Assembly (NCBI GenBank): GCA_964565945.1
Contig: CAZMGY010000015.1
Location: 1-32,000 of the forward strand
Source of the DNA: an uncultured bacterium
Lineage (GTDB): Bacteria > GCA-001730085
Direction of reading: 5' to 3'
DNA: 32,000 nucleotides
This document shows positions 7,718 to 30,191 of the stretch, piece by piece. The notes beneath the pieces are model-generated. The model was not told the DNA's origin, did no database searches, and worked only from the letters and a program-made list of their open reading frames with translations. The stretch's first letter is position 1. Every line of letters starts with the position of its first letter. The position numbers and the translations under genes were made by a program.

Positions 7718-8693
7718 CGTTTTTTGAATCTCCTGTTTGTTGCAGTTCTTGAATCCATGATTCCACTTCAGCACGATCTACTGCCGTAGGAACAATCATT
7801 AAATACTTTTTATAGTGAAAAATGGCTCGTTTGCGATTGAATAAATAATCACTATAAATCACACCCAAATTGTAATGAACATCGGCCGATTCATCGTTCT
7901 TGTCCAAAATACTCTTAAACTCATCAAGAGCTTTATTATACATTTCTTTCTTCACATAGATCACCCCAAGATTCACCCGAGAACGCAAATCTTCAGGATC
8001 CAATTCAATCGCCTTCACATACATCGGAATGGCCTCATCAAGCTTCCCTAAAGTGTAGAACATATCGGCCTTATTAAAAAAAGCGGCTGAGTAACGCGGA
8101 TACTCTTTGATAAGAAAGTTGAATATCTCAAGACTTTTCTCGGCATTTTTGATCTTAAACAAAGCGATAGCTTTGTTAAGCAACACATAAGGATTCTTAG
8201 GTTGCAACTTAAGCGCTTGATTATAATAGTCCATCGCCCGCTGGAACTCCTTGGTTCCTAACAAAGCGTCGCCACGACGCAAGAGGCTTTCAAACTTCTC
8301 ACTTTCTGCAGAGCGCAACACCTCAGGTGTCATTCCTTTTTGAAGTTGATATTTTTCCTTGAAGGTTTTTACCCTTTCAATCAACTTACCCAGTTCGCGA
8401 ACTTTATCCTCACAGCGACCAATCTGAATGTCAACCAAAATCAAAGGCCCCCAATCCGCGTGATCCTTTTTGACGGACTGGAACTGTTGAAGAGCCTTCT
8501 TATACAACTCCATTGCATCAAGATAGAAGCCTTTTTGCGTCTTTTGATCGGCGAGCTCAACCTTTTGCTTATAAGCCTTATAAAGCTCAATCGGACCAGA
8601 AGATGCCCAAAGAATCGTGGCTTGAAATAAGAGCAGTAATGTTAAAAAACATACCCCCCTCCTATTAATCCTTTGATTCCATGTAGGTAACAT
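7701..8693 (-). CDS. Secreted tetratricopeptide-repeat protein
   Basis: Predicted signal peptide (RINRRGVCFLTLLLLFQATILWA|SS) followed by multiple TPR-like units (A...Y.KAL.L.P.N). Start uncertain: ATG 8693 has GGAGA upstream. Confidence 0.65.
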   Translation of the reverse strand: MLPTWNQRINRRGVCFLTLLLLFQATILWASSGPIELYKAYKQKVELADQKTQKGFYLDAMELYKKALQQFQSVKKDHADWGPLILVDIQIGRCEDKVRELGKLIERVKTFKEKYQLQKGMTPEVLRSAESEKFESLLRRGDALLGTKEFQRAMDYYNQALKLQPKNPYVLLNKAIALFKIKNAEKSLEIFNFLIKEYPRYSAAFFNKADMFYTLGKLDEAIPMYVKAIELDPEDLRSRVNLGVIYVKKEMYNKALDEFKSILDKNDESADVHYNLGVIYSDYLFNRKRAIFHYKKYLMIVPTAVDRAEVESWIQELQQTGDSKNDENNQ

Positions 8694-9027
8694 ATTTCTC
8701 CAAAGCCTTACGTTTTGATTTTTCAAGATCTGCAAAAAAAACAGCCATTTCACGCGACCCAGGCTCAGCCTTCAAAGGCTCCGAACGAACCACCACCCCA
8801 GGACAATTGATTTTATTGACATTTTTTTTGCCTTTGGCATCGGGGCCTGGCAATAGCAAGGTCACAATAACCTTGGTCATCAAAGGCATTTCTTTATTTA
8901 TTTTAAACGATACCCCAGACACACTAATATCCTTTGCTTCGGAAATCATATTACTTTCAGCATCACTGATGGCAATCGCAATATCGCCCTTCACACGCTT
9001 ATGGCAACGCTTTTCTTCTTGAGACAT
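8665..9027 (-). CDS. PilZ-domain protein (putative c-di-GMP receptor)
   Basis: 120-aa ORF with an N-terminal basic KRCHKR motif (RxxxR-like) and DISVSGVSF (D/NxSxxG), the two halves of the PilZ c-di-GMP binding signature. Confidence 0.7.
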   Translation of the reverse strand: MSQEEKRCHKRVKGDIAIAISDAESNMISEAKDISVSGVSFKINKEMPLMTKVIVTLLLPGPDAKGKKNVNKINCPGVVVRSEPLKAEPGSREMAVFFADLEKSKRKALEKYVTYMESKD

Positions 9028-9077
9028 AATCCAATCCTGACCTTAATTAAAAAATTATATGTAAATAGCAAAAATCT

Positions 9078-9107
9078 ATTTTAACATGGCTATTTTTGAA
9101 GTGTCAA
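9078..9107 (-). promoter_or_regulatory. Sigma70-like promoter upstream of the PilZ gene
   Basis: On the minus strand: TTGACA (9107-9102), 18-nt spacer, TAAAAT (9083-9078). About 45 nt upstream of the ATG at 9027. Confidence 0.55.
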
Positions 9108-9114
9108 TTTAAGT

Positions 9115-9588
9115 CTAAAGAGACGGTTTACGCAACTCTTGAAAAAAGTGACTGAGTAAATCACTGGCATCTTGTGCCAAAACGCCCGAAAAGATTTCGG
9201 CGGTGTGATTAAATCGTATGTCGGTCAAAGTGTTGCACAAACTGCCACAAGCTCCCTTTTTAGGATCATGCGCGGCAAAGACTATCCGAGGGATACGTGC
9301 CAGCTGAATCGCACCAGCGCACATAAAACAGGGCTCCAGAGTAGTGTATAAGGTACATTCGTTAAGACGCCACGAATCCAAAGCCTCCGACGCTTGAGTG
9401 ATAGCAATCATTTCGGCATGGGCTGTTGCATCACGCAGCTGTTCAACTTGATTATGAGCTCGACCAATAATTTTATTATCGTGAGTGATAATGCAACCAA
9501 TCGGCACTTCCTTGATCTCATAAGCTTTGACGGCCTCATTAAGCGCCAACTTCATAAAGTGAGTATCGAGATCTGCTTCGTGCAACAT
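9115..9588 (-). CDS. tadA: tRNA-specific adenosine(34) deaminase
   Basis: CDA-fold zinc motifs HAEMIAI and PCFMCAGA. 157 aa, the typical TadA size. SD AAGGA upstream. Confidence 0.9.
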   Translation of the reverse strand: MLHEADLDTHFMKLALNEAVKAYEIKEVPIGCIITHDNKIIGRAHNQVEQLRDATAHAEMIAITQASEALDSWRLNECTLYTTLEPCFMCAGAIQLARIPRIVFAAHDPKKGACGSLCNTLTDIRFNHTAEIFSGVLAQDASDLLSHFFQELRKPSL

Positions 9589-9608
9589 GCCCTATCCTTG
9601 AGAAATTT

Positions 9609-9683
9609 TACGCCCGGGAGGATTCGAACCTCCAAGCCTTCTAATCCGTAGTCAGACGATCTATCCAGTTGATCTACGGGCGC
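9609..9683 (-). tRNA. tRNA-Arg (anticodon ACG), CCA not encoded
   Basis: Manual cloverleaf on the minus strand: acceptor GCGCCCG/CGGGCGT, D arm GATC-AACTGGATA-GATC, anticodon arm TCTGA-CTACGGA-TTAGA (ACG at 34-36), T arm GGAGG-TTCGAAT-CCTCC. Closely resembles E. coli tRNA-Arg(ACG). Confidence 0.85.
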
Positions 9684-9698
9684 ATAATGAAGTCACCA

Positions 9699-9727
9699 AT
9701 TATAACGATTCCGAGTTTTGAGGTCAA
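9699..9727 (-). promoter_or_regulatory. Near-consensus sigma70 promoter driving tRNA-Arg (and probably tadA)
   Basis: Minus strand: TTGACC (9727-9722), exactly 17 nt, TATAAT (9704-9699). The tRNA 5' end lies 15 nt downstream of the -10. Confidence 0.7.
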
Positions 9728-9730
9728 GCC

Positions 9731-9771
9731 ATATAAACAAAAGCTCTTGGTTACGGTTAAGCAAGAGCTTT
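9731..9771 (-). terminator. Putative intrinsic terminator after tsaB
   Basis: Perfect 10-bp inverted repeat AAAGCTCTTG (9740-9749) / CAAGAGCTTT (9762-9771) with a 12-nt loop. On the minus strand it is followed by TGTTTATAT. Located about 110 nt after the tsaB stop. Confidence 0.5.
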
Positions 9772-9881
9772 GACCTTTAGCTTCCCTGTCTTAGTTGACA
9801 ACTCTGTTTCAAGGGCTGCCACATGACGCAAATAAAGTTCGATCATGGTTATCTCTTTGTGTTCTATCCAGCCTTTAATAA

Positions 9882-15425: not shown

Positions 15426-16004
15426 TCATGAGGAAGGTTCCTTATTTTGAGATTGTGAAGACAACAGGTTCACCAAAATGTGAAGGGTCATTGTTCCATA
15501 AAATCCTCTAGGATGTTTGTTTTCGATGTCAAGCAAATGAATGTGAATGTCAAAAGAACTTGTTTCGATGGCTTTGATCATATCGATAAAAACAGGAGTT
15601 TCACAGAGAAATTCAATGTCTAAAAAGATAATGGATTGCATTTTATTCTGGCTTTTCTCTTGGTGAAAGGTGTAATTCATTAAGATATTAGGTTCGGTAT
15701 CGCCTAAAAACTTTTGGAGAAGTTCTAAGATAATCCGATGGGACTCTTCGACCTGACTAACTTTTAGAGCCTTGCTCTCTTGTTTGTTGAGGAGCGCTTT
15801 AAGTTTTTTAAGATCCTTGGCATAGCGTGCTTTATTTATAAATAGGTCTTCGTATTTTTGCAAGGATTTTCTAGTTTTTTTGAGTGAAGCTAAACTGGGA
15901 TCTTGTTGCGAGTATTTAAAATTTATTAAAGACAAAGAGCCAATCCCTATAAAAATTGCCAAAGGAAGGAGTATTTGTGAATTTAGATATTTACTTTTGT
16001 CCAC
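15426..16004 (-). CDS. T2SS assembly protein, GspM/PilO-like (bitopic)
   Basis: Last gene of the gsp module. Single TM helix (ILLPLAIFIGIGSLSLI), then a coiled-coil and a small domain. Start proposed at GTG 16004, preceded by GGGAGAAG and overlapping the upstream stop by 14 bp. The ATG at 16148 would overlap the upstream gene by 158 bp. Confidence 0.5.
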   Translation of the reverse strand: MDKSKYLNSQILLPLAIFIGIGSLSLINFKYSQQDPSLASLKKTRKSLQKYEDLFINKARYAKDLKKLKALLNKQESKALKVSQVEESHRIILELLQKFLGDTEPNILMNYTFHQEKSQNKMQSIIFLDIEFLCETPVFIDMIKAIETSSFDIHIHLLDIENKHPRGFYGTMTLHILVNLLSSQSQNKEPSS

Positions 16005-17442
16005 GAGCTTCTCCCTGCAAATATGAAAAATAGAACTTAGCTTGAAAACCAATATGATCTGGATATTCTTGTTTGATTTGAGATAGTTTCGAAATTTGTA
16101 AGGATTTGATATTGTAACATAAATCAAGTCCTTGACTGACATCTGCAACGCTTTGCGTTAAGCCTTCGAGCGTTATTTTTCCCGTTACGTCTTTAGAGAG
16201 ATGTGTTAGGTAGGTATGTGCGGGAAGGTGTCTGTTTAAATTACTGAGCAATGAAAGCAAGAAAGGTTGTTTCTTGAACGAAGAAGTGATTTTATGGATG
16301 GACTTGAGCTCTTTTTTTAACTTCTTTTGCAAAGATTTGGTCTTTTGGGCACCCTGACGGATTTCGCTGATCCTTTGTTTAAGCGGTTTTAAAAGAGAGA
16401 CGAGTTGGTGAGGTTTAAACGTCAAACCGAGCTGACATAGAAAAATACCGCCCAACAATGCGGACACATGAGGTTGGTATTTTTGAAAAGAAAGAGGGCC
16501 TTGAGACTCTGATTTTAGATCCAGATAAGGATACTGTTTCAAAATAGATATGGCGTGTCCAAAGGCAAGAATATACTCTCGTTCAATGGTATGCTCAACA
16601 GAAACATTTTGCATTTGTAAATTTTTGCAAAGATACTCAAGAATGAGGTCGGGGATATCCTTAATACTGTGGATTTTAAGGAAGCTAGGACGTGATCCAG
16701 ATTGAATGGTTTGGAAGTAAGTAATTGCACTTTCCATTTCATCGAAAATAATGTCCCATTCCGCACTAGGACCTTGATGTTCGTGAATGCTACTAAAGTT
16801 TGGATGTCCTGTGAGGGACTTTGAAAAACGTAGCAAGCCTTTATCTAAAATATTAATGTGGATCTCGTTTGGATTGCTTAGGTCGATTAAAAGAACTGTT
16901 TCAGTTTGAAATGTTTCGGAATGATAAATGTAGTAAGCAGAAATAGCGCATACTTTAAGGCTAACAAGAGGCTTTTTAAGTCCCCAGCTTTTGAGTTGTG
17001 CACGGTGTTTTTGCAAGCTTTCTTTTTTGGTTAAACCCAAAAGGATATGGAGGTGATGAGGGTTCATCTCTTTAAGTAAAGAAAAGTCGTAAACAATATC
17101 GTCCTTGTTGAAGGGAATGTGGTTTTCTATTTCGAACGATAAGGCTTGTTCTACAAGCTTGTGTTCCATGGGAGGCAGTTTAATTTCTTTGATAAGAACC
17201 TTCTCTAAAGGAGCAATGGTTCGAATATTCTGATTCGAAATACCGCATCGTTTAAGCAGTGCTGTAACTTTTTGACTAATTTCCGAAGAACTAGGATTAT
17301 CGGTTAAATATTCGATGCCATAGCTTGCAATTTTTAGATTAGGGCCTTGAATATGGCATTTAAGAGCACATATAAAGTGCTTCTCAATGGTTAAGCAGCC
17401 GACTGAGCTTAAATTAAAATTGATAAGTACCTTTTTAATCAT
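15991..17442 (-). CDS. gspL: T2SS GspL-like protein with PilM-like cytoplasmic domain, TM segment and PilN-like periplasmic tail
   Basis: 483 aa in the gspL position (after gspK). N-terminal pattern (...VLIKEIKLPPMEHKLVEQALSFEIENHIPF..DDIVYDF) matches the PilM/GspL actin-like fold. One TM (ALLGGIFLCQLGLTF) near residue 340. Confidence 0.6.
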   Translation of the reverse strand: MIKKVLINFNLSSVGCLTIEKHFICALKCHIQGPNLKIASYGIEYLTDNPSSSEISQKVTALLKRCGISNQNIRTIAPLEKVLIKEIKLPPMEHKLVEQALSFEIENHIPFNKDDIVYDFSLLKEMNPHHLHILLGLTKKESLQKHRAQLKSWGLKKPLVSLKVCAISAYYIYHSETFQTETVLLIDLSNPNEIHINILDKGLLRFSKSLTGHPNFSSIHEHQGPSAEWDIIFDEMESAITYFQTIQSGSRPSFLKIHSIKDIPDLILEYLCKNLQMQNVSVEHTIEREYILAFGHAISILKQYPYLDLKSESQGPLSFQKYQPHVSALLGGIFLCQLGLTFKPHQLVSLLKPLKQRISEIRQGAQKTKSLQKKLKKELKSIHKITSSFKKQPFLLSLLSNLNRHLPAHTYLTHLSKDVTGKITLEGLTQSVADVSQGLDLCYNIKSLQISKLSQIKQEYPDHIGFQAKFYFSYLQGEARGQK

Positions 17443-18508
17443 ATGTCACAGTGACCCAGCAGATAACCCTCAATTGCGCTTCTTCCTCAGAAAGAAACGT
17501 TTTGTGGACCACAGCTTCGGTGCGAAGCAATGTTGTTGTACGATCCGCTGTTTGTAACGTTGAGATAATTTTATAAAAAGATGTGCGAAAAGACAAATGT
17601 TTCTCCAGAGCTTTGAGCGCTTCTTGGCTCAATGTGAGTTGTCCAGTGTCTTCTAGTTCTTTAAGATGAACGATAGGTCTCTCTTCGCGTAAAGAAAGGA
17701 GTGTTTGAATTTCGCTTGACGAAAAACCTAAGAAAGGAAGAACAATGTTGAGGACTTCTTCGGGGGCCGTGTTGATATTAATAATGGATTTGGTCTTTAA
17801 ATATTTTTGTGAGAGATTGATTAATTTTTCGTTTTGAGTCGAAGCGATATCATCAAGCTCAAAAGTTTGGCGAAATGAGCTTTGATTTTTTTCGATATCA
17901 CTATTGCGCTGCTCGTTCAATAAATCAGATAAAGATGCAGTGACTTTTTGGATATCTTCTTGAGAGACATTTTTGTAGGCTAAAAAGCGTGCAATTTGCT
18001 TGGGTTTAGAAAGATTTAAACTCGGATCTCCATATGTGGTTAGGTAACGACTCCATGCTTTGGTTCTATATTGAGGATCTATTTCGGAAAGGTGACTCAC
18101 AAACATATCTTGGTTATGGATTTTTTGGATAGAAGAGAGTGTTTTGCCATTGATATCAGGGATACGTTCAATCCATTCTGAGGGATGAACATTGACGTTA
18201 ATCAGGCTACCAACATCTTCAATGGTGAGAGTATTGATCAGTTGCTGATTTTGATAAATGATCGTATCTTCTGGGTCCCTTTCTGAGGGGTGATCGTAAA
18301 GGTTGGTATCTTGTTTGATTTTGGCCATTGTGAGTAAAAGGCCATTTTTGACATATTGCTTATAGATAAGCGTTTGTTTGAGCTGTTGAAGAGATTTTCG
18401 ATTGGTGCGAAAATGAAAGGACAAGGTGGTGCCCATAATCATGAGTGCGATAACTGCCCATAAAACAAAAATAAGAGTGAACCCGTGAGGCTTAGATAAT
18501 TTGATCAT
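17435..18508 (-). CDS. gspK: T2SS minor pseudopilin GspK
   Basis: Prepilin-like N-terminus KPHGFTLIFVLWAVIAL lacking Glu+5, as in GspK. Size about 357 aa. NINTAPEEVL helix-hairpin-helix motif. Start set at ATG 18508. Confidence 0.8.
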   Translation of the reverse strand: MIKLSKPHGFTLIFVLWAVIALMIMGTTLSFHFRTNRKSLQQLKQTLIYKQYVKNGLLLTMAKIKQDTNLYDHPSERDPEDTIIYQNQQLINTLTIEDVGSLINVNVHPSEWIERIPDINGKTLSSIQKIHNQDMFVSHLSEIDPQYRTKAWSRYLTTYGDPSLNLSKPKQIARFLAYKNVSQEDIQKVTASLSDLLNEQRNSDIEKNQSSFRQTFELDDIASTQNEKLINLSQKYLKTKSIININTAPEEVLNIVLPFLGFSSSEIQTLLSLREERPIVHLKELEDTGQLTLSQEALKALEKHLSFRTSFYKIISTLQTADRTTTLLRTEAVVHKTFLSEEEAQLRVICWVTVTYD

Positions 18509-19049
18509 AGAGAACCTCAAAAATAAGATATTGGGTTTGTTCAAAATGTTTGTGATTAAAGCTTAGGCGAACAAAACGTGGCCAGCGTTGCTTATAGGTC
18601 CATGTGCGCAACCAGGTTTGTGTATTGGGGTCAAAATAATCGACGTGAGCTTGTTGGACCTTTGTGAGCGTGTGTGTAAGCAGGGGTGAGGCTTCGGGCA
18701 AAGCGGGCTTAACCATCACTTCGATGGTTTTCCTGCCATTAAGAATCGCTATGAGGATATGTCTTTTGAAAAGGCCTTGGTTATTTTCTTGGATGCTTGT
18801 GAAGGTCAGTCGATCACTCTGCCCATAGAAAGCACTGCGTGGGTCAAGGTCGGAATAGTATAAGCTTTCGAGGTTGTTTTTTAACAGAGAGTGGAAGAAA
18901 AGTGTTGCTGTGATGAACTCTGTTCTTTCCGATGTTTTTCGGTAAGTGGCAAGAGCAATTGAAAAAAAACCGACCACGGCTGTGATCAATAGCGCACTGA
19001 TCGTAAAAGTGACAATCACTTCGATAAGAGTGACGCCTCGTTGATTCAT
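18492..19049 (-). CDS. gspJ: T2SS minor pseudopilin GspJ
   Basis: N-terminus MNQRGVTLIEVIVTFTISALL (prepilin motif with Glu+5). 185 aa. Position between gspI and gspK. ATGA overlap with gspI. Confidence 0.75.
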   Translation of the reverse strand: MNQRGVTLIEVIVTFTISALLITAVVGFFSIALATYRKTSERTEFITATLFFHSLLKNNLESLYYSDLDPRSAFYGQSDRLTFTSIQENNQGLFKRHILIAILNGRKTIEVMVKPALPEASPLLTHTLTKVQQAHVDYFDPNTQTWLRTWTYKQRWPRFVRLSFNHKHFEQTQYLIFEVLYDQII

Positions 19050-22270: not shown

Positions 22271-22299
22271 TTGACAAAAAAGCAGTGCTTGATTACACT
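22271..22299 (+). promoter_or_regulatory. Sigma70-like promoter upstream of the SIR2-TPR gene
   Basis: TTGACA (22271-22276), 17 nt, TACACT (22294-22299). About 55 nt upstream of ATG 22359. Confidence 0.55.
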
Positions 22300-22358: not shown

Positions 22359-24194
22359 ATGAATGAAGTGCAAAAACTTAAAGAGGAAGAATTAATATCA
22401 CGTATATCTAATGTCGACAATAATGTGCGTTTTAGTTTTTTTTTTGGTGCAGGTGCTTCGCTTCGTTCGGCTATTCCATTAGCGCAAAGCCTCTGCGAAA
22501 CTTGGATAAAGGAAATAGAGAAAGGCCCCTCCCCGAAGGCCGTCAAAGAAGAGTGGAAAAAGAACCCCTCTTCACTTTCTGTGTTTTATAGTGACATTTT
22601 TGAAACACGTTTTCGTGCAAACTTAGATTTAGGTGACAAATTTTTGCAGGAGCATATGGATAAGGCTAGCTCCAGTATTGGTTATTTGTTTTTAGCAGAG
22701 ATTTTAGCCCAAACTAAAAATAAAGTTGTAATAACCACCAATTTTGACACCCTGAGTGAAGATGCTTTATTTTATTTAAAAAATAAAAAACCCTTAGTGA
22801 TTGGCCATCCGTCACTAGCTGAACATTTAAAAACCACCGACTTAGATCGCCCAGTGATTATTAAACTACATCATGACTTTTTATTAAAACCTAAAAGTTT
22901 TGAGGAAGAGACAAAGAAATTAGCCCCAGAGTTTAAAGCAAAACTTGACCTTATTTTAGAAGCGACGCACTTAATCGTATTGGGATATAGTGGCAATGAT
23001 AACAGCGTTATGGATTACCTTAAAAACAACAAAAAAAGAAAACCTATTTATTGGTGTCGCCTTGCTAAAGATGCGTTATCAAAAAAAGTAGAGGAAACAT
23101 TAATAGAAAAAGACTTTATTGTAGAAATTAAAGATTTTGACCGTTTTATGTTGCTATTACGTGGAAAGTTTCCTGGGATTAAATCTTTAATTGATACAGA
23201 TAATCCTTCTGAAAGCCTTTTAATAACAGATGTAAACAATAAGGTTGAAAAATGTCTAAACCAATTAGAGAGATTATTCCAATCTAGTAATGAAAAAGAA
23301 GAACCTTCTTGGTCACAAGAAGAGAAGGACTCCATTAAAAAGCAAATACCCCCTTGGGGGATTTACGAATCACGGGTGAATGAAACAGAAAACAATGACA
23401 ACAAAAATGCAATCTATTTGGAGGGCTTGAACATATACCGTAAGAACCCCAAATTTCTTAACAATTATGCAAGATTTTTAGAAAATATTCGCAACAATTA
23501 TGACGAGGCAGAGAAATATTACAAAGAAGCCTTAGCCTTAGACTTAGACTTAGATCCGAATCATGCACTCATAACTTTCAATTATGCAGGATTTTTAGAA
23601 AATATTCGCAAAGATTATGACGAGGCAGAGAAATATTACAAAAAAGCCTTAGAAGTAATGCCCCATCACGCAACAATTAATCACAATTATGCAGAATTTT
23701 TAAAAAATATTCGCAACGATTATGACGAAGCAGAGAGATATTTCAAAAAAGCCTTAGAATTAGAGCCAAATAATGCACTCATGAATTCCAATTATGCAGG
23801 ATTTTTAGGAGGTATTCGCACCAATTGTGACGAAGCAGAGAAATATTTCAAAAAAGCCTTAAAATTAGGGCCAAATAAGGCACTCATAAATTCCCATTAT
23901 GCAGGATTTTTAGTACGTATTCGCAAAGATTATGACGAGGCAGAGAAATGTTTCCAAAAAGCCTTAAAATTAGAGCCAAATAATGCACTCATAACTTTCA
24001 ATTATGCAGAATTTTTAAAAAATATTTGCAACGATTATGCCAAGGCAGAGAAATATTTCCAAAAAGCCTTAAAATTAGAGCCAAATAATACACTCATGAA
24101 TTCCAATTATGCAAGATTTTTAGAAAATATTAGCAAAGATTATGCCAAGGCAGAGAAATATTTCAAAAAATCCTTAGAATTAGAGTCAAATTAA
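22359..24194 (+). CDS. SIR2_2-type (defence-like NADase/sirtuin-fold) domain fused to a 7-unit TPR array
   Basis: N-terminal FFFGAGASLRSAIP (aa 27-40), VITTNFDTL (N128), IIKLHHDF (H171) and LIVLGYSGNDNSVMDYL reproduce the SIR2_2/ThsA-type motif order (GAGxS...TTNYD...KLHG...GYSxxD). From about aa 345 to 611 there are TPR-like units NYAxFLxNIRxDYDEAEKYFKKALxLEPNNALxx. No Walker A motif anywhere in the protein. Confidence 0.8.
   Translation: MNEVQKLKEEELISRISNVDNNVRFSFFFGAGASLRSAIPLAQSLCETWIKEIEKGPSPKAVKEEWKKNPSSLSVFYSDIFETRFRANLDLGDKFLQEHMDKASSSIGYLFLAEILAQTKNKVVITTNFDTLSEDALFYLKNKKPLVIGHPSLAEHLKTTDLDRPVIIKLHHDFLLKPKSFEEETKKLAPEFKAKLDLILEATHLIVLGYSGNDNSVMDYLKNNKKRKPIYWCRLAKDALSKKVEETLIEKDFIVEIKDFDRFMLLLRGKFPGIKSLIDTDNPSESLLITDVNNKVEKCLNQLERLFQSSNEKEEPSWSQEEKDSIKKQIPPWGIYESRVNETENNDNKNAIYLEGLNIYRKNPKFLNNYARFLENIRNNYDEAEKYYKEALALDLDLDPNHALITFNYAGFLENIRKDYDEAEKYYKKALEVMPHHATINHNYAEFLKNIRNDYDEAERYFKKALELEPNNALMNSNYAGFLGGIRTNCDEAEKYFKKALKLGPNKALINSHYAGFLVRIRKDYDEAEKCFQKALKLEPNNALITFNYAEFLKNICNDYAKAEKYFQKALKLEPNNTLMNSNYARFLENISKDYAKAEKYFKKSLELESN
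23463..24191 (+). repeat. Seven in-frame tandem DNA repeats (1 x 117 bp, 5 x 105 bp, final truncated unit of about 87 bp) encoding the TPR array
   Basis: Unit starts at 23463, 23580, 23685, 23790, 23895, 24000 and 24105, each beginning (A/C)ATTATGCA. Units share long identical strings, e.g. GAGGCAGAGAAATATT(T/A)C(A)AAAAAGCCTTA(G/A)AATTAGAGCCAAATAATGCACTCAT. Confidence 0.9.
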
Positions 24195-24204
24195 AATTAT
24201 TAGA

Positions 24205-25347
24205 ATGAAACAAATAAAATTAAATAAACTTAAAATAGGAATAATCGGAGGAGGCCAACTGGGTCGTATGCTCGCGCTTAAAGCCAAAGAGTGGAATGTG
24301 AGCGCCTCTATTATGGCTCCCTCAAACTCGGCTTCTGCGCGCGCCGTCTGTGACCATTTTGAGCAAGGTTCCATTTATTCCCAAGAAGCTATTCTAAGCT
24401 TTGCCCAAGACCTCAACCACATCACCATCGAGTCCGACCATGTGAATGTGCAAGCCCTTGAATTGTTAGAACAACAAGGAAAGATTGTCATTCCATCGAG
24501 CCAAACGCTCAGAGTGATTCAAGACAAGGGCCAGCAAAGACAATTTTATGCTGATCACAAGTTGCCATCCCCACGTTTTGAATGTTTCGCTTCGCCTCAA
24601 GAACTCGCACAATCTCAATGGAACGCACCCTTTATTGTCAAAACGCGCACCGCGGGTTACGATGGCAAGGGTGTTTTTATCATCCATGATCAAAACACTA
24701 TCGCTCAATTGCCCAACATCCCCATTGTGGCCGAAGAATCTATTGATATCGTAAAAGAGTTCTCCATTATTGTTGTGCGCAATCAAGCAGGCGACATCGC
24801 CACGTATCCCGTTAGCGAATTAGCTGTTCATCCCGACACATTTATGCTTGACTACATGGTATCTCCAGCTAATATCGAAGACTCCATTGCAAACAAAGCC
24901 CAAACGATAGCTCGAGATTTAGCCACCAGTTTAAAGGTTGTAGGTTTGCTTGCAATCGAACTGTTTTTAGATCGTAACGATCAGCTATGGATCAATGAAT
25001 CTTCAGCACGCCCCCATAATAGCGGGCATTACACCATTGAAGGAGCAGTTACTTCGCAATATGAACAACATTTGCGCGCCATTTTTGATTTGCCTTTAGG
25101 CGACTGTCGTTCCACAGGTATTTCTGGAATGATTAACCTTTTAGGAGCCCCTGATGCCCAAGGGCAACCTCTGTATTGCGGTCTTGAAGATTGCCTAGAA
25201 TATCCCGATGTTCATGTTCATATCTATGGCAAGGCAGAGGTTTCACCGCATCGCAAGATGGGGCATATCACGGTGTTAAGAGATTCTTACATGCAATTAC
25301 AAGAAACTATTCAAACCCTTAAAAAGAAAGTGAGCGTGCAATCATGA
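24205..25347 (+). CDS. purK: N5-carboxyaminoimidazole ribonucleotide synthase
   Basis: IGIIGGGQLGRML N-terminus, ATP-grasp core (FIVKTR..GYDGKGV) and the NE...RPHNSGH motif. Confidence 0.93.
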   Translation: MKQIKLNKLKIGIIGGGQLGRMLALKAKEWNVSASIMAPSNSASARAVCDHFEQGSIYSQEAILSFAQDLNHITIESDHVNVQALELLEQQGKIVIPSSQTLRVIQDKGQQRQFYADHKLPSPRFECFASPQELAQSQWNAPFIVKTRTAGYDGKGVFIIHDQNTIAQLPNIPIVAEESIDIVKEFSIIVVRNQAGDIATYPVSELAVHPDTFMLDYMVSPANIEDSIANKAQTIARDLATSLKVVGLLAIELFLDRNDQLWINESSARPHNSGHYTIEGAVTSQYEQHLRAIFDLPLGDCRSTGISGMINLLGAPDAQGQPLYCGLEDCLEYPDVHVHIYGKAEVSPHRKMGHITVLRDSYMQLQETIQTLKKKVSVQS

Positions 25348-25889
25348 GTCTATCTACACAAGAACCCCTTGTTAGCATTGTCATGGGGTCAGACTCAGAC
25401 CTGCCTATCATGCAAGAAGCCGCTGTGTTTTTGGAAGAGCTCTCAATTCCTCATGAGGTCTCGATTGTCTCGGCCCATCGCACTCCCGAGCGATTGTTTA
25501 GCTATAGTCAAGATCTTAGCAATCGTTCCATCAAGGTCATCCTCGCCGGCGCAGGTGGTGCGGCTCATTTGCCTGGCATGATAGCTTCCCTCACGCCCCT
25601 ACCTGTGATTGGCGTGCCAATCCATAGCCGAATTTCTCTTGATGGATGGGACTCTGTTTTATCTATTTTACAAATGCCTCCAGGAATCCCCGTGGCCACG
25701 GTAGCCCTTAACGGAGCTAAAAATGCGGGTATATTGGCCGCTCAAATCTTAGGGACTTCTGATCCTTCCATTTTGGATCAGGTCACAACTTATAAACAAA
25801 ACTTAAACCAAGTAATCATGGATAAAATCCAGCATTTAGAACAAGACGGCTTTCGTAATTACCTCAAAAAGAAGGAAGATAAACTATGA
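25344..25889 (+). CDS. purE: N5-carboxyaminoimidazole ribonucleotide mutase (class I PurE)
   Basis: VSIVMGSDSDLPIM, SAHRTPERL, AGGAAHLPGM and PVIGVP motifs. ATGA overlap with purK. Confidence 0.93.
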   Translation: MSLSTQEPLVSIVMGSDSDLPIMQEAAVFLEELSIPHEVSIVSAHRTPERLFSYSQDLSNRSIKVILAGAGGAAHLPGMIASLTPLPVIGVPIHSRISLDGWDSVLSILQMPPGIPVATVALNGAKNAGILAAQILGTSDPSILDQVTTYKQNLNQVIMDKIQHLEQDGFRNYLKKKEDKL

Positions 25890-26857
25890 TTGATGCCCTC
25901 ATTAATCCTATCGTTTTCTTTTTTATTTTAGGTTTGGTCGCAGGCCTGCTTCGCTCGGACTTAAAAATTCCCGATGGTCTTTATGAAACTCTCAGTATTT
26001 ATTTACTCTTAGCTATTGGACTTAAAGGGGGCGTAGAGCTGTCCAAAGTTAACCTATTCGACATTATTCAACCTATGGTTTGCACACTGGCCGTGGGCAT
26101 CCTTATTCCCTTAATTGCTTACACCCTTGCGAAAACTCTGTTTAATTATTCGCGCATCAATGCCGCGGCCTTAGCCACCCATTATGGTTCTGTGAGCGCA
26201 GTCACCTTTGCCGTTTGTCTCACCTACTTAACTCATTTAGCCATTCCTTACGATCCTTATGTGACCGTTATGCTTGTCATTCTCGAAGTACCCGCCCTGA
26301 TTATTGGCATTATGCTCGCCAAAACGGGCACTCCTGGATTCAAGCAAAATATCCTTAAGGTGTTGCACGAAGTCTTGTTTGGCCAAAGTATCTTTCTGCT
26401 AGTGGGTGGCTTGTTAATCGGCTTATTCGTCGGAGCTAAAAAAATGGAAATGCTCGACACCGTATTTGTGGCTCCTTTCAAAGGGGTGCTCGCCTTTTTT
26501 CTTCTCGAAATGGGCCTGATGGTTTCTAAGCGAATTAGCAGCCTGAAAACAATCGGCCCCTCATTGGTCATTTACGGCATTTGCATGCCGATCCTTTCGG
26601 GCACACTAGCTAGCATTCTTGGAGCAATACTCGGTCTTCATTTGGGCACCTTAGTTGTCCTTGCTACTCTTTCGGCCAGTGCTTCGTATATTGCCGCTCC
26701 TGCCGCTGTCCGAGTGGCCATTCCCAAAGCCAATCCTGCTATTTACCTGACCTCTTCTCTAGCAATTACATTTCCCTTTAATGTGGTTCTAGGCATACCG
26801 ATCTATCATCAAGTGGCCACATTTTGCCTGACATTATTTCAAGGAAGCGCTGGTTAG
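25886..26857 (+). CDS. SbtA-like (DUF897) sodium-dependent bicarbonate-transporter-family permease
   Basis: 323 aa, about 10 TM helices. N-terminus ...NPIVFFFILGLVAGLLRSDLKIPDGLYETLSIYLLLAIGLKGG matches the conserved start of the SbtA/DUF897 family. ATGA overlap with the purE stop. Confidence 0.6.
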   Translation: MIDALINPIVFFFILGLVAGLLRSDLKIPDGLYETLSIYLLLAIGLKGGVELSKVNLFDIIQPMVCTLAVGILIPLIAYTLAKTLFNYSRINAAALATHYGSVSAVTFAVCLTYLTHLAIPYDPYVTVMLVILEVPALIIGIMLAKTGTPGFKQNILKVLHEVLFGQSIFLLVGGLLIGLFVGAKKMEMLDTVFVAPFKGVLAFFLLEMGLMVSKRISSLKTIGPSLVIYGICMPILSGTLASILGAILGLHLGTLVVLATLSASASYIAAPAAVRVAIPKANPAIYLTSSLAITFPFNVVLGIPIYHQVATFCLTLFQGSAG

Positions 26858-27171
26858 TAAAGTCAAACAAGTTTTCAATATGCCTCAGCTCACTTGCCTG
26901 GGACGGCTCTGAAAGCCCTCCACATCCAAATCTTCCAAAATAATCCACAATTCCTAAATCGTGCTCACCATTTGCAAAGGCTTCATCGAAATCAGCCATC
27001 CATTTTATAAAAAATGTTTAAGCACTTGTGCGAATCATTTAATGTCTAAGCTCATTCAAGGAATAGGGGGGCTTTTCCCCTTCATAATCCGTCCAAGTCA
27101 CTGTAACATCCATGATCATCCATCGAATAAAACCAAGGTGCCAAAAGTCCATCTTGGCATTTTATTAATAT

Positions 27172-28226
27172 TTAAATAAAAAAGCCCTGCTGAGCATTGT
27201 TAAAGCCGAGAGATGCTGATTTTTGAAAATACTCTTCAGCTCGTAAATCGGATTAGGGTACACCTTGACCATCGCGATAAGCCACACCCAAATTGTATTG
27301 AGCCACAGCTTGTACCCCTTTATTTTGAGATTAAAACGCAACCTGCTAAAGCTTAATCGCATTACCTATGTTTTTATTGCCACCAAGCCCCAAATAGTAC
27401 AAACCCCCCAACTTTATTCATCGCTTGAACATTGTTGAACTGCATCCGCAAAACCTGCTCCAACAAAGCACGCGCCTGTTCATAAGACTTGCCCTGAATT
27501 AACAAAACCGCTAGGTTGTAATATCTACGAGGATCACCCAATTGACCAACTTTCATAAAGTAATCAATCACTTTTTGCTTGTTTTCCATTTACACGGCAT
27601 GCCTGCCCAATTTTAAATAGGCTTCTGTTCTGTATTGTTGGATTCTTCCAACAAACGACTCCCTTCGGGAAGATTTTCATGACCACCAATGCCATTCAGT
27701 AAAAAGTCACCATAAGTCGCCTTGAGCTTGAGTACTAGGCAAATCATTATAAGAGGCACGACGGGAAGTACTGACGAATGAGTCTCCCCTCAGGCAAAGG
27801 TTCATAACATTGACGATACAGCAAATTCAAAACACCCTCCGAAACAGGATCTAACAACTCGGCTTCCTTCAAAAGAATGTCCATGGCATCTTTCGACTTT
27901 TGTTGATAAAAATAGGCGCCCAAACTAAATTGAACTTTTTTAAGGTCTTCATCAAAAATCCAAGGGTAATCATTACGCAACTGGGCACGTGTTTCTTTCG
28001 CTTTTTTAGCACATTCGGGATAATTAACAAAAATAGGCGTTAACCACTTAATGACATCTTTAGCTTTATTTTTTTCCATGTAATATCACGCCAAATCAAG
28101 CATCGCCTGAGGTGTCCCATAAGGAAAATAGCTGAACAAAATAAAGCAAACGCTTGATCCACTATAAGCAATGTTCCACTCAAAGCAATAACACCTATCA
28201 ACCCATTTCGACTTTTGCACTTTCAT
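27172..28226 (-). pseudogene. Decayed secreted Sel1-repeat (SLR/TPR-like) protein gene
   Basis: Sel1 units are readable only by switching frames and reading through stops: ...AQYNLGVAYRDGQGVP*SDLRAEEYFQKSASLGFNNAQ, LGGLYYLGLGGNKNIGNAIKL*Q.AF*SQNKG, AYLKLGRHAV*MENKQKVIDYFMKVGQLGDPRRYYNLAVLL. In-frame stops at 27253-55, 27331-33, 27346-48 and 27590-92. Frameshift near the G6 run at 27404-09. N-terminal MKVQKSK, then (other frame) GLIGVIALSGTLLIVDQAFA, a signal peptide. The longest intact pieces are ORFs 27747-28079 and 27374-27589. Confidence 0.6.
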
Positions 28227-28535
28227 AAACACCCCTCAAGTTTGAGTTGTTTGTAGCACATCTTTTAGAGAAGCACATTATAACAACTCCTCTCCAATCA
28301 GGCTTGTTTGAGAATCATCGCCATAAAGGTGCTAGTTTTATTTGCGAACACGCGTCATTTGCATGCGACACAGCAAGCGTCGAGTCAGAAAGAGCTACAA
28401 CTAGCGAGAACAGGATTCAGCGTAAGGCCTAAAAAAAAACAAGAGCTACAAGAAAATGCGAAGCTGTCTCAACATAAAATCCAATACTGCTTGTCTCAGT
28501 TAAATAGAAGATTAATGGTAAGGGAATTGCGCCAA

Positions 28536-30191
28536 CTAGTCAAGCCGATCATCGGCCAAGTGCCAATGATAATCTTGTAAAATGCTCACCTCAACAATAT
28601 TCTCGGCTTTGCTTAGCAAGGTTTCGCAATCTTGACTCAAATTGAGCAAATGCAGTTTTTTGCCAGCCTGGGCATAACGACTCGTCACATTATCAATAGC
28701 TTCGATACCCGAATGATCAAACACCAAGGCCTTTTCGAAATCGATAATAATTTCTTCGGGATCGTTATGAACATCAAACAAAGCCTTAAAAGCTGTCACC
28801 GAACCAAAAAATAAACTTCCTTTAAGACGGTACATTTTATGCCCTTTAGGAGTTATCTCTGTCTCGACAATAATTTTTTTGCTTTGTGCCCAAGCAAATA
28901 CCAAAGCCGAAACAATCACACCGACAATCACTGCAATCGCAAGGTCAAGCACAACCGTCACAACCGCTACCAAAATGATCACAAACGCATCGGAACGAGG
29001 AATTTTTTTCATAATACGCAGACTAGACCATTCAAAGGTCGCAACAACCACCATAAACATAATGCCAACCAAAGCCCCTAAAGGGATCTGCTCGATCAAA
29101 GCAGCTCCCAACAAAATAAAGCCCAACAAAAACACCGCAGCCGTAATCCCCGATAAACGGCCTCGACCCCCAGCACGAATATTGATAATACTCTGTCCGA
29201 TCATGGCACAGCCTCCCATGCCTCCTAAAAAGCCATTCACAAAGTTGGCAATCCCTTGACCAACACTTTCTTTGTTACTTTTGCCATGGGTTTCGGTCAG
29301 TTCATCGACCAAGGTCAAGGTCATTAAAGACTCAATCAAACCCACCGCGGCGGCCAAAGCCGCATAAGGGAAGATGATTTTTAAGGTTTCCAAGTTGAAG
29401 GGAATCTGCGGCACCGCAAAACTAGGTAAAGTAGCCGCAATCGTCGTTTTGCTTGGATCCATGTTTGTCACAAAATCCAAAACGGTGTGCACCTCAAAAC
29501 CAGCTTTGCGTAATCCAATAGAAACCAAAGTCGTCGTAAGAATGGCCACCAAAGATGCTGGAACAGCTTTGGTCAAACGAGGCAAAAAGTGCGCAATCGC
29601 CATGGTAAGTGCAATTAACGCCAGCATAATCAACAAAGGTGTCGGTGGTAACAAGTGGCGTGCTTCACCCGTGCCAATATAAAACTGCGCAAACTGCGCT
29701 TTAAAAATCACAATCGCCAAACCATTAACAAAGCCCAGCATCACAGGATGAGGAATCAAGCGCACAAATTTTCCTAATTTGCACACGCCAAACACAATCT
29801 GCAAGACCCCCATCAAAATCACTGCTGCAAACAAATACTGGGTCGCCAGATCTAAACCAACCTGAGCACTCAGCGCAATCATCATTGGCGCAAAAATAAC
29901 CGCCACGGCGCCTGTGGCGCCCGAAATCATCCCAGGTCGCCCACCTATGCAAGCCGTAATCAGACCCATTAAAAAAGCCGCATATAGTCCAATTGTAGGA
30001 TCGACATGCACCACAAACGAAAAGGCAATCGCTTCGGGAATAAGGGCTAAAGCCACCGTAAGTCCCGACAATATATCATTCTTGATATTCGAAGGTTTTT
30101 TAATAATCAAATCAATCATGCCATCTACCCATTCTTGTTCACCATTTTCGTCCACCAACTTCCATTTAAAGATTTTGGCGGGGGTAGGCAT
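28536..30191 (-). CDS. SulP-family anion transporter with C-terminal STAS domain
   Basis: DILSGLTVALALIPEAIAFS and multiple TM helices. C-terminal STAS (YRLKGSLFFGS...FDHSGIEAID...LHLLNLS). Start uncertain: ATG 30191 or 30119. The ORF extends to 30269. Confidence 0.85.
   Translation of the reverse strand: MPTPAKIFKWKLVDENGEQEWVDGMIDLIIKKPSNIKNDILSGLTVALALIPEAIAFSFVVHVDPTIGLYAAFLMGLITACIGGRPGMISGATGAVAVIFAPMMIALSAQVGLDLATQYLFAAVILMGVLQIVFGVCKLGKFVRLIPHPVMLGFVNGLAIVIFKAQFAQFYIGTGEARHLLPPTPLLIMLALIALTMAIAHFLPRLTKAVPASLVAILTTTLVSIGLRKAGFEVHTVLDFVTNMDPSKTTIAATLPSFAVPQIPFNLETLKIIFPYAALAAAVGLIESLMTLTLVDELTETHGKSNKESVGQGIANFVNGFLGGMGGCAMIGQSIINIRAGGRGRLSGITAAVFLLGFILLGAALIEQIPLGALVGIMFMVVVATFEWSSLRIMKKIPRSDAFVIILVAVVTVVLDLAIAVIVGVIVSALVFAWAQSKKIIVETEITPKGHKMYRLKGSLFFGSVTAFKALFDVHNDPEEIIIDFEKALVFDHSGIEAIDNVTSRYAQAGKKLHLLNLSQDCETLLSKAENIVEVSILQDYHWHLADDRLD

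Follow-up and report, generated by a model that had tools for sequence, protein, structure and literature searches.

The stretch of DNA considered here, 32,000 nucleotides from an uncultured bacterium (positions 1 to 32,000 of contig CAZMGY010000015.1, assembly GCA_964565945.1; this whole stretch is called the window below), contains a gene that encodes a defence-type sirtuin (SIR2) domain joined to an array of tetratricopeptide repeats (TPRs). What might a protein of this architecture, here termed SIR2-TPR, do for the cell that carries it? It is fairly probable that SIR2-TPR acts as a stand-alone, single-protein sensor-effector that depletes NAD+, that is, as an NADase triggered by a ligand and activated by oligomerisation. 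Its role is most likely that of a one-gene antiviral suicide switch. The parts of the gene are listed below, with residues given as amino acids (aa) of the protein.

22359..24194, + strand: SIR2-TPR coding sequence, 611 aa plus stop, ATG start, from the open reading frame (ORF) listing
22359..23168, + strand: SIR2_2 (defence-type sirtuin) domain, aa 1-270, a Rossmann fold plus helical subdomain without zinc module
22446..22460, + strand: GAGAS cofactor-binding loop, aa 30-34, placed by family invariance and alignment to GsSir2
22728..22748, + strand: V-I-T-T-N-F-D motif, aa 124-130, with the catalytic Asn N128 (codon 22740-22742)
22869..22928, + strand: catalytic His H171 and the subsequent loop, aa 171-190 (H171 codon 22869-22871)
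23169..23435, + strand: helical bridge from SIR2 to TPR, aa 271-359, with DSSP helices at 287-311, 320-329, 332-342 and 346-359
23436..24191, + strand: seven TPR units of 35 aa each, aa 360-611, presumably the solenoid that binds the ligand, from Pfam, repeat analysis and model

The N-terminal domain matches the Pfam family SIR2_2 (PF13289) with 37.0 bits, above the gathering cutoff of 24.5 (E-value 4.3e-9, aa 123-230), and TPR_1, TPR_2 and related Pfam models match seven stretches of the C-terminal part (E 5e-34), as had been expected in a preliminary description of this DNA. The motifs follow one another as TTN (aa 126-128), KLHH (aa 169-172) and GYSG (aa 209). N128 and H171, which the preliminary description had named as the catalytic pair, are where it had placed them and are invariant in both 66 and 146 relatives, together with G30, G32, S34, F129 and D130 and likewise with H150, K169, G209, Y210, G212 and D214. 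Within the Asn motif, V124, T126, T127, N128, F129 and D130 are all invariant in the 66 homologues, and T126, N128, F129 and D130 stay invariant in the 146 family sequences. In the alignment to GsSir2-APAZ (PDB 8jkz/8in8), which partners a short prokaryotic Argonaute in the SPARSA system, TTNFD corresponds to TTNFD, KLHHDF to KIHGDF and GAGAS to GAGTS, so that N128 aligns with GsSir2 N142 and H171 with GsSir2 H186. N142 and H186 are catalytic in GsSir2, a loop from G25 to A37 is required for its NADase activity, and tetramerisation repositions the 'catalytic loop' that carries H186 (PMC11452484).

A family profile made from 21 SIR2 domains was searched against the PDB. It matched SIR2 proteins only, and GsSir2-APAZ was the top match over the whole domain (aa 6-272, E 2e-40). 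Far lower significance was reached with DSR2 (2e-11), ThsA (3e-9), KomC (1e-8), FAM118B (6e-3) and SIR2-HerA (0.025), and canonical deacetylase sirtuins reached 2.5e-4 or worse. The structural neighbours are similar. An AlphaFold2 model of the full protein, made with the 66 homologues, has a mean pLDDT (predicted local distance difference test) of 89.9 and a pTM (predicted template modelling score) of 0.74; the corresponding values for a SIR2-only model are 86.7 and 0.87. The loop after H171 is the lowest-confidence segment in both models (pLDDT 63-80). In a Foldseek search with the SIR2-only model, SPARSA Sir2 (8y80_E) came first (E 1.5e-15, template modelling score 0.78), followed by ThsA, KomC, DSR2, Avs5 and SIR2-HerA, and the top 50 matches were defence NADases without exception, in line with the family assignment of the preliminary description.

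Searches with the PADLOC models point in the same direction. The best models are the pAgo (prokaryotic Argonaute)-associated Aga_SIR2 (4e-30) and then PDC-S65 (1.3e-17), and the PADLOC 'SIR2' models reach 1.5e-5 only. The Aga_SIR2 alignments stop at about aa 267, near profile position 300, with the TPRs lying beyond. In ten relatives, Aga_SIR2 and PDC-S65 both match the SIR2 domain only, PDC-S65 always scoring below the pAgo-associated SIR2 models. PADLOC v2 contains no model dedicated to the SIR2-TPR family, and its best matches span the SIR2 domain alone. PDC-S65 was considered as a name for the family and set aside as unproven, because it covers the SIR2 domain only, scores second-best and has no publication that could be found. 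From sequence, the SIR2 domain of SIR2-TPR is the apparent sister of the SIR2 module of SPARSA.

Only two cysteines, C46 and C233, occur in the SIR2 domain and they form no CxxC pair; SIR2-TPR therefore lacks the zinc module of deacetylase sirtuins. This bears on a non-immune explanation, in which SIR2-TPR would be a regulated enzyme, either one that modifies proteins in an NAD-dependent manner (deacylase or ADP-ribosyltransferase) or one of NAD homeostasis, with the TPRs recruiting cellular substrates and the gene wired to the downstream purK-purE-sbt genes. The eukaryotic SIR2_2 proteins FAM118A/B, which process NAD outside phage settings, lend this idea some support. The zinc module, which is missing in SIR2_2 proteins, is however needed for canonical sirtuin deacetylase activity according to the FAM118 paper, and the nearest sequence and structural relatives of SIR2-TPR are all NADases of immune systems.

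The SIR2 domain leads into a bridge that had been taken for a low-complexity linker of ~90 aa. This view has to be given up, since aa 287-359 are predicted as four ordered helices (pLDDT 75-90) and not as disorder. The TPR units that follow start at aa 360, 399, 434, 469, 504, 539 and 574, unit 1 being separated from unit 2 by 4 additional aa, and the protein ends three residues past the last unit. Each unit is modelled as paired helices, and the best Foldseek matches for the TPR part are designed consensus TPR superhelices. In its second helix and turn (DYDEAEKYFKKALELEPNN), the unit presumably comes near the designed consensus TPR, and an additional residue in the A-B loop accounts for the period of 35 aa. 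At the DNA level, the array is a tandem repeat with a period of 105 nt and 84% matches. The units are 70-89% identical in nucleotide sequence and on average 60% identical in protein sequence, so that the number and length of the repeats in the preliminary description stand and its 'near-identical' is somewhat generous. The count of seven comes from a single longer assembly and may include collapse or expansion. As a side observation, a promoter-like site (TTGAAA/TTGGAA/TTGTAA-16/17-CATAAT/CACAAT) recurs once per TPR unit on the minus strand at 23497-24166, most simply as a by-product of the repeated DNA.

The concave face of the array is variable. Canonical TPRs have their specificity positions on this face at 2, 5, 9, 12, 13, 33 and 34 (PMC1261162). 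The register was fixed by equating L7/G8/Y11 with unit Y11/A12/L15, A20/A27 with unit A25/A32 and P32 with unit P2, which places the seven positions at unit positions 6, 9, 13, 16, 17, 3 and 4. Across 23 family proteins that have at least five units, the entropy within an array averages 1.41 bits at these positions versus 0.56 elsewhere (Mann-Whitney p=4.5e-6), and all seven are among the top nine of the 35 positions. The scaffold is 60-85% identical among units in family arrays, and the number of units per family protein ranges from 2 to 15. In sequence terms, the array looks amplified and then differentiated on its ligand face. A structural search of BFVD returned generic giant-virus TPR and Sel1 proteins only.

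The most economical assumption about the trigger is that a protein or peptide of the invader is bound directly, because the TPR solenoid is the sole candidate sensor and its concave face varies from unit to unit. Another possibility is that the same NADase effector belongs to a dispersed signalling system, in which the TPRs sense a small-molecule alarm, e.g., a TIR-made ADP-ribose (ADPR) derivative, or a host protein altered by infection. A TPR domain has been proposed to perceive cyclic ADPR in ThsI, the effector of Thoeris type VII/VIII; the same SIR2 clade is fused to TIR in one family member (P0040); and TIR and TPR can occupy separate proteins in TIR-II systems. We nevertheless regard such signalling as decidedly unlikely here. 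No TIR or conserved signal-making gene adjoins the family members or occurs in the window, and arrays of 2-15 units with a diversified concave face fit extended protein or peptide ligands better. The neighbourhoods provide no conserved partner gene of any kind, a candidate arrangement that was looked for and rejected: the largest cluster of neighbours within two genes on either side reaches 3 of 34 loci.

The preliminary description had stated that SIR2-TPR contains no NTPase, and also no SLOG, HerA-partner or DSR-type C-terminal region. These statements are upheld, and APAZ/pAgo is lacking as well. Neither a Walker A pattern nor an NTPase Pfam match was found in the protein; SLOG, Macro and TIR have no match in the protein or in the window genes; and none of the 31 annotated window genes encodes pAgo (Piwi/MID), HerA, TIR or STAND. 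SIR2-TPR belongs to none of the named systems, because the defining partner or domain of each was looked for and is lacking. How closely it resembles them differs from system to system. SPARSA has by far the closest SIR2 domain, sharing the GAGxS loop, the TTNFD Asn and the K-x-H-x-D-F His, and the loop after the His is mobile in SPARSA and of low confidence in the SIR2-TPR models. SIR2-TPR differs in having neither an APAZ domain nor a pAgo gene in the window; its sensing is therefore not based on guide RNA and target DNA. In Avs5/SIR2-STAND (AVAST type 5), an N-terminal SIR2 domain of similar structure (9jap, 9nc9) is likewise combined with C-terminal sensor repeats, and activation occurs by filament formation; Avs5, however, has a central STAND NTPase. 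Thoeris ThsA is set apart by its SLOG/Macro domain and its TIR partner (ThsB), and SIR2-HerA by the HerA ATPase, which is missing from the window, and by its poor profile match (0.025). A further system combines interchangeable N-terminal effectors, including SIR2, with rapidly evolving TPRs (Kaur et al. 2021, PMC8195603). In that conflict system a constant GreA/B-C and PIN part comes after the TPRs, for which SIR2-TPR has no Pfam matches.

In its mode of action, SIR2-TPR would by analogy be most like DSR2 and TIR-II. DSR2 of Bacillus subtilis captures the phage tail tube between HEAT-like repeats and is activated allosterically in a SIR2-centred tetramer. Its layout recalls that of SIR2-TPR: a single chain without an NTPase, in which a SIR2 NADase at the N-terminus is joined through a helical bridge to an alpha-solenoid at the C-terminus. 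The full-length SIR2-TPR model aligns with DSR2 over ~750 columns, but with a global root-mean-square deviation of ~23 A. DSR2 is ~1000 aa long with HEAT-like repeats, whereas SIR2-TPR has 611 aa and its repeats are canonical, internally repetitive TPRs whose copy number varies, and the sequence relation is weak (profile E 2e-11 versus 2e-40 for SPARSA). TIR-II of Escherichia coli is a single protein composed of TIR and TPR with validated antiphage activity that requires the NADase active site, and only ~30% of its family contain an ATPase (PMC11350192). It shares with SIR2-TPR the fusion of an NADase effector to TPRs in a single gene, the effector being TIR instead of SIR2.

By analogy with these nearest relatives, a mechanism can be outlined that would end in abortive infection. 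The N-terminal domain would be a SIR2 NADase of the defence type that shares a clade with the SPARSA SIR2 module. In the resting state it would be inactive, with the H171 loop out of line with N128. The concave face of the TPR superhelix would bind a ligand that stems from the invader, most probably a protein or peptide of a phage, and this binding would drive or rigidify SIR2-SIR2 oligomers (a tetramer or a filament, as in SPARSA, DSR2, ThsA and Avs5). In SPARSA, SIR2-SIR2 contacts arise through guide/target recognition (PMC11452484). No NTPase switch would be required for activation through the oligomer. Once H171 is positioned, hydrolysis of NAD+ would yield ADP-ribose and nicotinamide, and arrest or death of the infected cell would follow. 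The TPR arrays would evolve as units are duplicated and the residues that face the ligand diversify.

How common is this design? When 1.84 billion representative proteins were searched exhaustively with a profile, there were 12,686 matches at E<=1e-3, 6,003 at E<=1e-10 and 1,830 representative clusters at E<=1e-30. Among the best 145 representatives, 69 have at least two units of the same 35-aa TPR type (up to 11), and at least 51 of the remaining 76 have Pfam TPRs. The combination of SIR2 and TPR thus accounts for at least 83% of these 145, and Walker A occurs in two. SIR2-TPR is therefore typical of a very large family and not a one-off; the preliminary description had seen in it an unusual 'minimal' protein, a view that falls, since the form without an NTPase is dominant. 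Other proteins of the same SIR2 clade occasionally carry, in place of TPRs, TIR (P0040), FtsK-gamma (P0046, P0050) or a Crp-type helix-turn-helix (P0007), and some have C-terminal domains lacking any assignment. A separate group of SIR2-clade proteins of ~864 aa was noted on IMG/VR contigs (L118, L121, L123-L128, L130, L131, L133); no Pfam family matches the last 550 aa of these proteins, and a conserved YYRF-x-WPA-x-P motif closes the sequence. The annotation of family members currently goes no further than 'tetratricopeptide repeat protein' or 'SIR2 family protein'. In the literature, no paper that names or tests the SIR2-TPR architecture was found; one phylogeny of sirtuins does no more than label those SIR2_2 proteins in which TPR and other domains occur (PMC12700824).

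The SIR2-TPR family is clearly mobile. Four plasmids carry members, including a Photobacterium plasmid that codes for a 716-aa protein with SIR2 and TPR, and members occur on 38 IMG/VR viral contigs, at least six distinct ones of which have confirmed SIR2 and TPR. Genes for a baseplate hub, a GpU-like tail protein, a baseplate wedge, a late activator, an integrase, a terminase and a primase are found beside them. In five related prophages (L114, L115, L116, L117, L119; ~7950-9830), three allele clusters of SIR2-TPR occupy the same slot, which is flanked by genes for 92, 639 and 98 aa upstream and by a 397-aa baseplate-hub-like and a 312-aa gene downstream, as would be expected of a hotspot for cargo. 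In a Haloferax pleolipovirus provirus, a SIR2+TPR gene lies next to the integrase and a dcm methylase. The Vibrio phage PQ189330.1 (L147 5980-7818), a P2/186-like temperate phage, encodes a 612-aa SIR2-clade protein with a non-TPR C-terminus between a cI-type repressor (plus a PH-domain gene) and the integrase, and this position is the lysogeny-module slot typical of prophage defence cargo. One homologue lies in a clear island of a Bacteroidota-like genome of 5.6 Mb, amid Fic, a Schlafen-like ATPase, a PLD nuclease, RES-Xre and HigBA, and a contig related to this island again has a PLD nuclease. At another locus (L029 3314-4129), a canonical Sir2 gene (PF02146) was observed two genes upstream of a SIR2-TPR gene.

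Such carriage could also befit a selfish element, i.e., an addiction module or toxin whose NADase would kill cells that lose it or do not keep it in check and whose TPRs bind an unlinked antidote, or cargo that benefits the phage through superinfection exclusion. The location of the island homologue between the toxin-antitoxin pairs RES-Xre and HigBA and the use of lysogeny and tail-module slots in prophages are in line with this view. No antidote gene is conserved next to the family members, though, and superinfection exclusion by a prophage equals, in practice, the antiviral switch that we favour; as an account of its own, selfish cargo is very improbable.

Is the gene itself a foreign insertion in its genome? 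Two features of the locus, besides those of the protein, have to be considered.

22271..22299, + strand: sigma-70-like promoter candidate, TTGACA-17-TACACT, 10/12 consensus matches, ~60 nt before the ATG
24195..24204, + strand: 10-bp spacer from the SIR2-TPR stop to the purK ATG, without terminator

The window is ordinary chromosome. Its genes are, in order, gatB, gatA, ksgA, pdxA, surA, pgi, tadA, tRNA-Arg, tsaB, tsaE, pyrG and kdsB, then a type II secretion pseudopilin cluster, SemiSWEET, GATase, a nitrobindin-like gene and SIR2-TPR, and, downstream of the latter, purK, purE, an SbtA-like transporter, SulP, Dps and MscS. An Rfam scan of the window found tRNA only. As noted in the preliminary description, SIR2-TPR is more AT-rich than its neighbours: its GC content of 0.334 is the lowest of the 31 window genes (z = -3.0). 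Its GC content at third codon positions (GC3) is 0.304 (z = -3.1), and the GATase gene two genes upstream has a GC3 of 0.303. The distal part of the type II secretion/pseudopilin cluster (15426-18544) is also AT-rich, with gene GC contents of 0.34-0.38; among its products are a PilM-PilN fusion-like protein of 483 aa and a protein of 240 aa without Pfam match. The near-consensus promoter reported in the preliminary description is present; the AT-rich stretch contains 19 promoter-like sites versus 11 +/- 3.2 in shuffles, and the candidate is a consensus match only. What did not stand is the idea of an isolated transcription unit: the stop codon lies 10 bp from the purK ATG, and no terminator-like site occurs on the + strand between 22252 and 24900. 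Read-through into purK-purE-sbt (24205-26857) is therefore likely, as far as these signals can be read from the DNA.

Two observations concern the genes downstream. The order purK-purE followed by an SbtA-type bicarbonate transporter, at 24205-26857 in the window, recurs in a distant relative (L028 8001-10989), where a P-II-like gene follows the transporter; this is a conserved coupling of a bicarbonate importer with the bicarbonate-using PurK step. The 1.7 kb between the sbt-like gene and SulP (26857-28536) contain short ORFs only, including a TPR/Sel1-like one of 71 aa (27374..27589, - strand) and one of 110 aa (27747..28079, - strand), which may be decayed genes; Rfam finds nothing there.

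The source organism is a deep-branching bacterium of the PVC (Planctomycetes, Verrucomicrobia and Chlamydiae) group. Its CTP synthase shares 76% identity with the enzyme of 'PVC group bacterium (ex Bugula neritina AB1)', and identities beyond the two closest relatives are at or below ~65%. The nitrobindin-like gene followed by the 5' part of SIR2-TPR was found with 0-1 mismatches in at least 21 short-read metagenome contigs from three SRA series. For the 5' part of SIR2-TPR, 8 independent metagenome contigs agree with the window at 0-1 mismatches. Every such contig of the source organism stops at the TPR array (loci L004-L017), and contigs on the purK side begin within the last TPR unit. Since the 21 or more contigs agree and the assemblies break at the repeats, SIR2-TPR is fixed at this site in the sampled population. 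An exact-match lookup of the 611-aa protein found it not on record, which is explained by the same breakage.

Relatives whose purK is 52-54% identical have kept purK-purE(-sbt), with unrelated genes upstream and no SIR2-TPR; their purK loci also lack the nitrobindin-like neighbour, which makes this a weak test of absence. When the synteny of the two closest relatives (72-76% identity) was anchored on pyrG, the gene order broke at the boundary of the type II secretion system (T2SS), so this comparison is uninformative on the insertion site. A purK scan of the genome collection for synteny gave weak cyanobacterial matches only. The closest homologue of SIR2-TPR (53% identity, 847 aa) lies at another locus, between amidohydrolase and flavin monooxygenase genes. 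Given its absence ahead of purK in the nearest available relatives and the unrelated locus of its closest homologue, SIR2-TPR does not look like a conserved syntenic housekeeping gene, in agreement with the preliminary description. It resembles an insertion that came in by horizontal transfer, directly ahead of purK-purE-sbt, with this genome as the presumed recipient.

The kinship with a bacterium from the bryozoan Bugula neritina raises the thought that SIR2-TPR is a eukaryote-like repeat protein of a host-associated PVC bacterium, an NADase delivered into or against animal host cells. TPR-rich proteins are typical of symbionts, and the type II secretion gene cluster lies 2 kb upstream. However, the N-terminus (MNEVQKLKEEELISRISNV...) has no hydrophobic stretch resembling a signal peptide, the T2SS genes lie on the other strand and a relative has conserved them without SIR2-TPR, and the family occurs in many free-living lineages, phages, plasmids and an archaeal virus. 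Delivery into a host is accordingly an extremely improbable function.

Several results weigh against an antiviral role, and part of them would suit the non-immune explanation introduced above. Apart from SIR2-TPR, the window has no defence genes, integrase or transposase. At 33 metagenomic loci of the family, the 124 neighbours within two genes on either side, as classified with PADLOC and Pfam, are mostly metabolic or housekeeping genes. Scattered defence matches among them are one type III Cas7/Csm3, PDC-S01, bSEFIR and two PLD proteins; with so few, this sample does not show the enrichment by which defence islands are usually recognised. Activity or phenotype data for any family member were not found in the literature. 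The ratio of non-synonymous to synonymous changes between units is ~1.4, which is not significantly above 1 (p=0.19; 6.5 synonymous versus 41.5 non-synonymous); no positive selection is therefore claimed, and units 5-7 have 12-16 non-synonymous and 0 synonymous differences. Concave-face hypervariability is general to TPRs (PMC1261162) and marks a binding face, not an arms race. Finally, a gene that is fixed and invariant in at least 21 population contigs and lies 10 bp from purK with no terminator between them also fits a domesticated role. Metabolic or homeostatic function nevertheless seems unlikely. SIR2-TPR is absent at the purK loci of relatives, the neighbours of its homologues are unrelated, the family travels as prophage, provirus and plasmid cargo, and the composition of the gene is an outlier.

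If the antiviral switch is the correct interpretation, a family of thousands of representative clusters would join the antiviral catalogue, among the simplest of sensor-effector designs. In the window, SIR2-TPR is the only immune-like gene of an uncultured PVC bacterium related to a bryozoan associate. The design itself will not surprise a specialist; the abundance and simplicity of the family make it a reasonable target. It would be a tractable system in which the oligomerisation of SIR2 is controlled by a repeat array alone, without an NTPase switch, and it links the SIR2 module of the Argonaute-associated systems to a protein-sensing lineage. More tentatively, and with rather less confidence than we place in the function of the single protein, SIR2-TPR may represent a very widespread class of NTPase-free pattern-recognition receptors of bacteria and archaea, in effect an NLR without NOD. 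Its SPARSA-type SIR2 NADase would be switched on solely by oligomerisation in response to TPR ligands, its specificities would evolve as TPR units are duplicated and their concave-face residues diversify, and SIR2-APAZ would be a sister. The SIR2-APAZ lineage would then have swapped protein-sensing TPRs for the nucleic-acid-sensing APAZ/pAgo module, and the SIR2-TPR family could show how TPR arrays gain new specificities.

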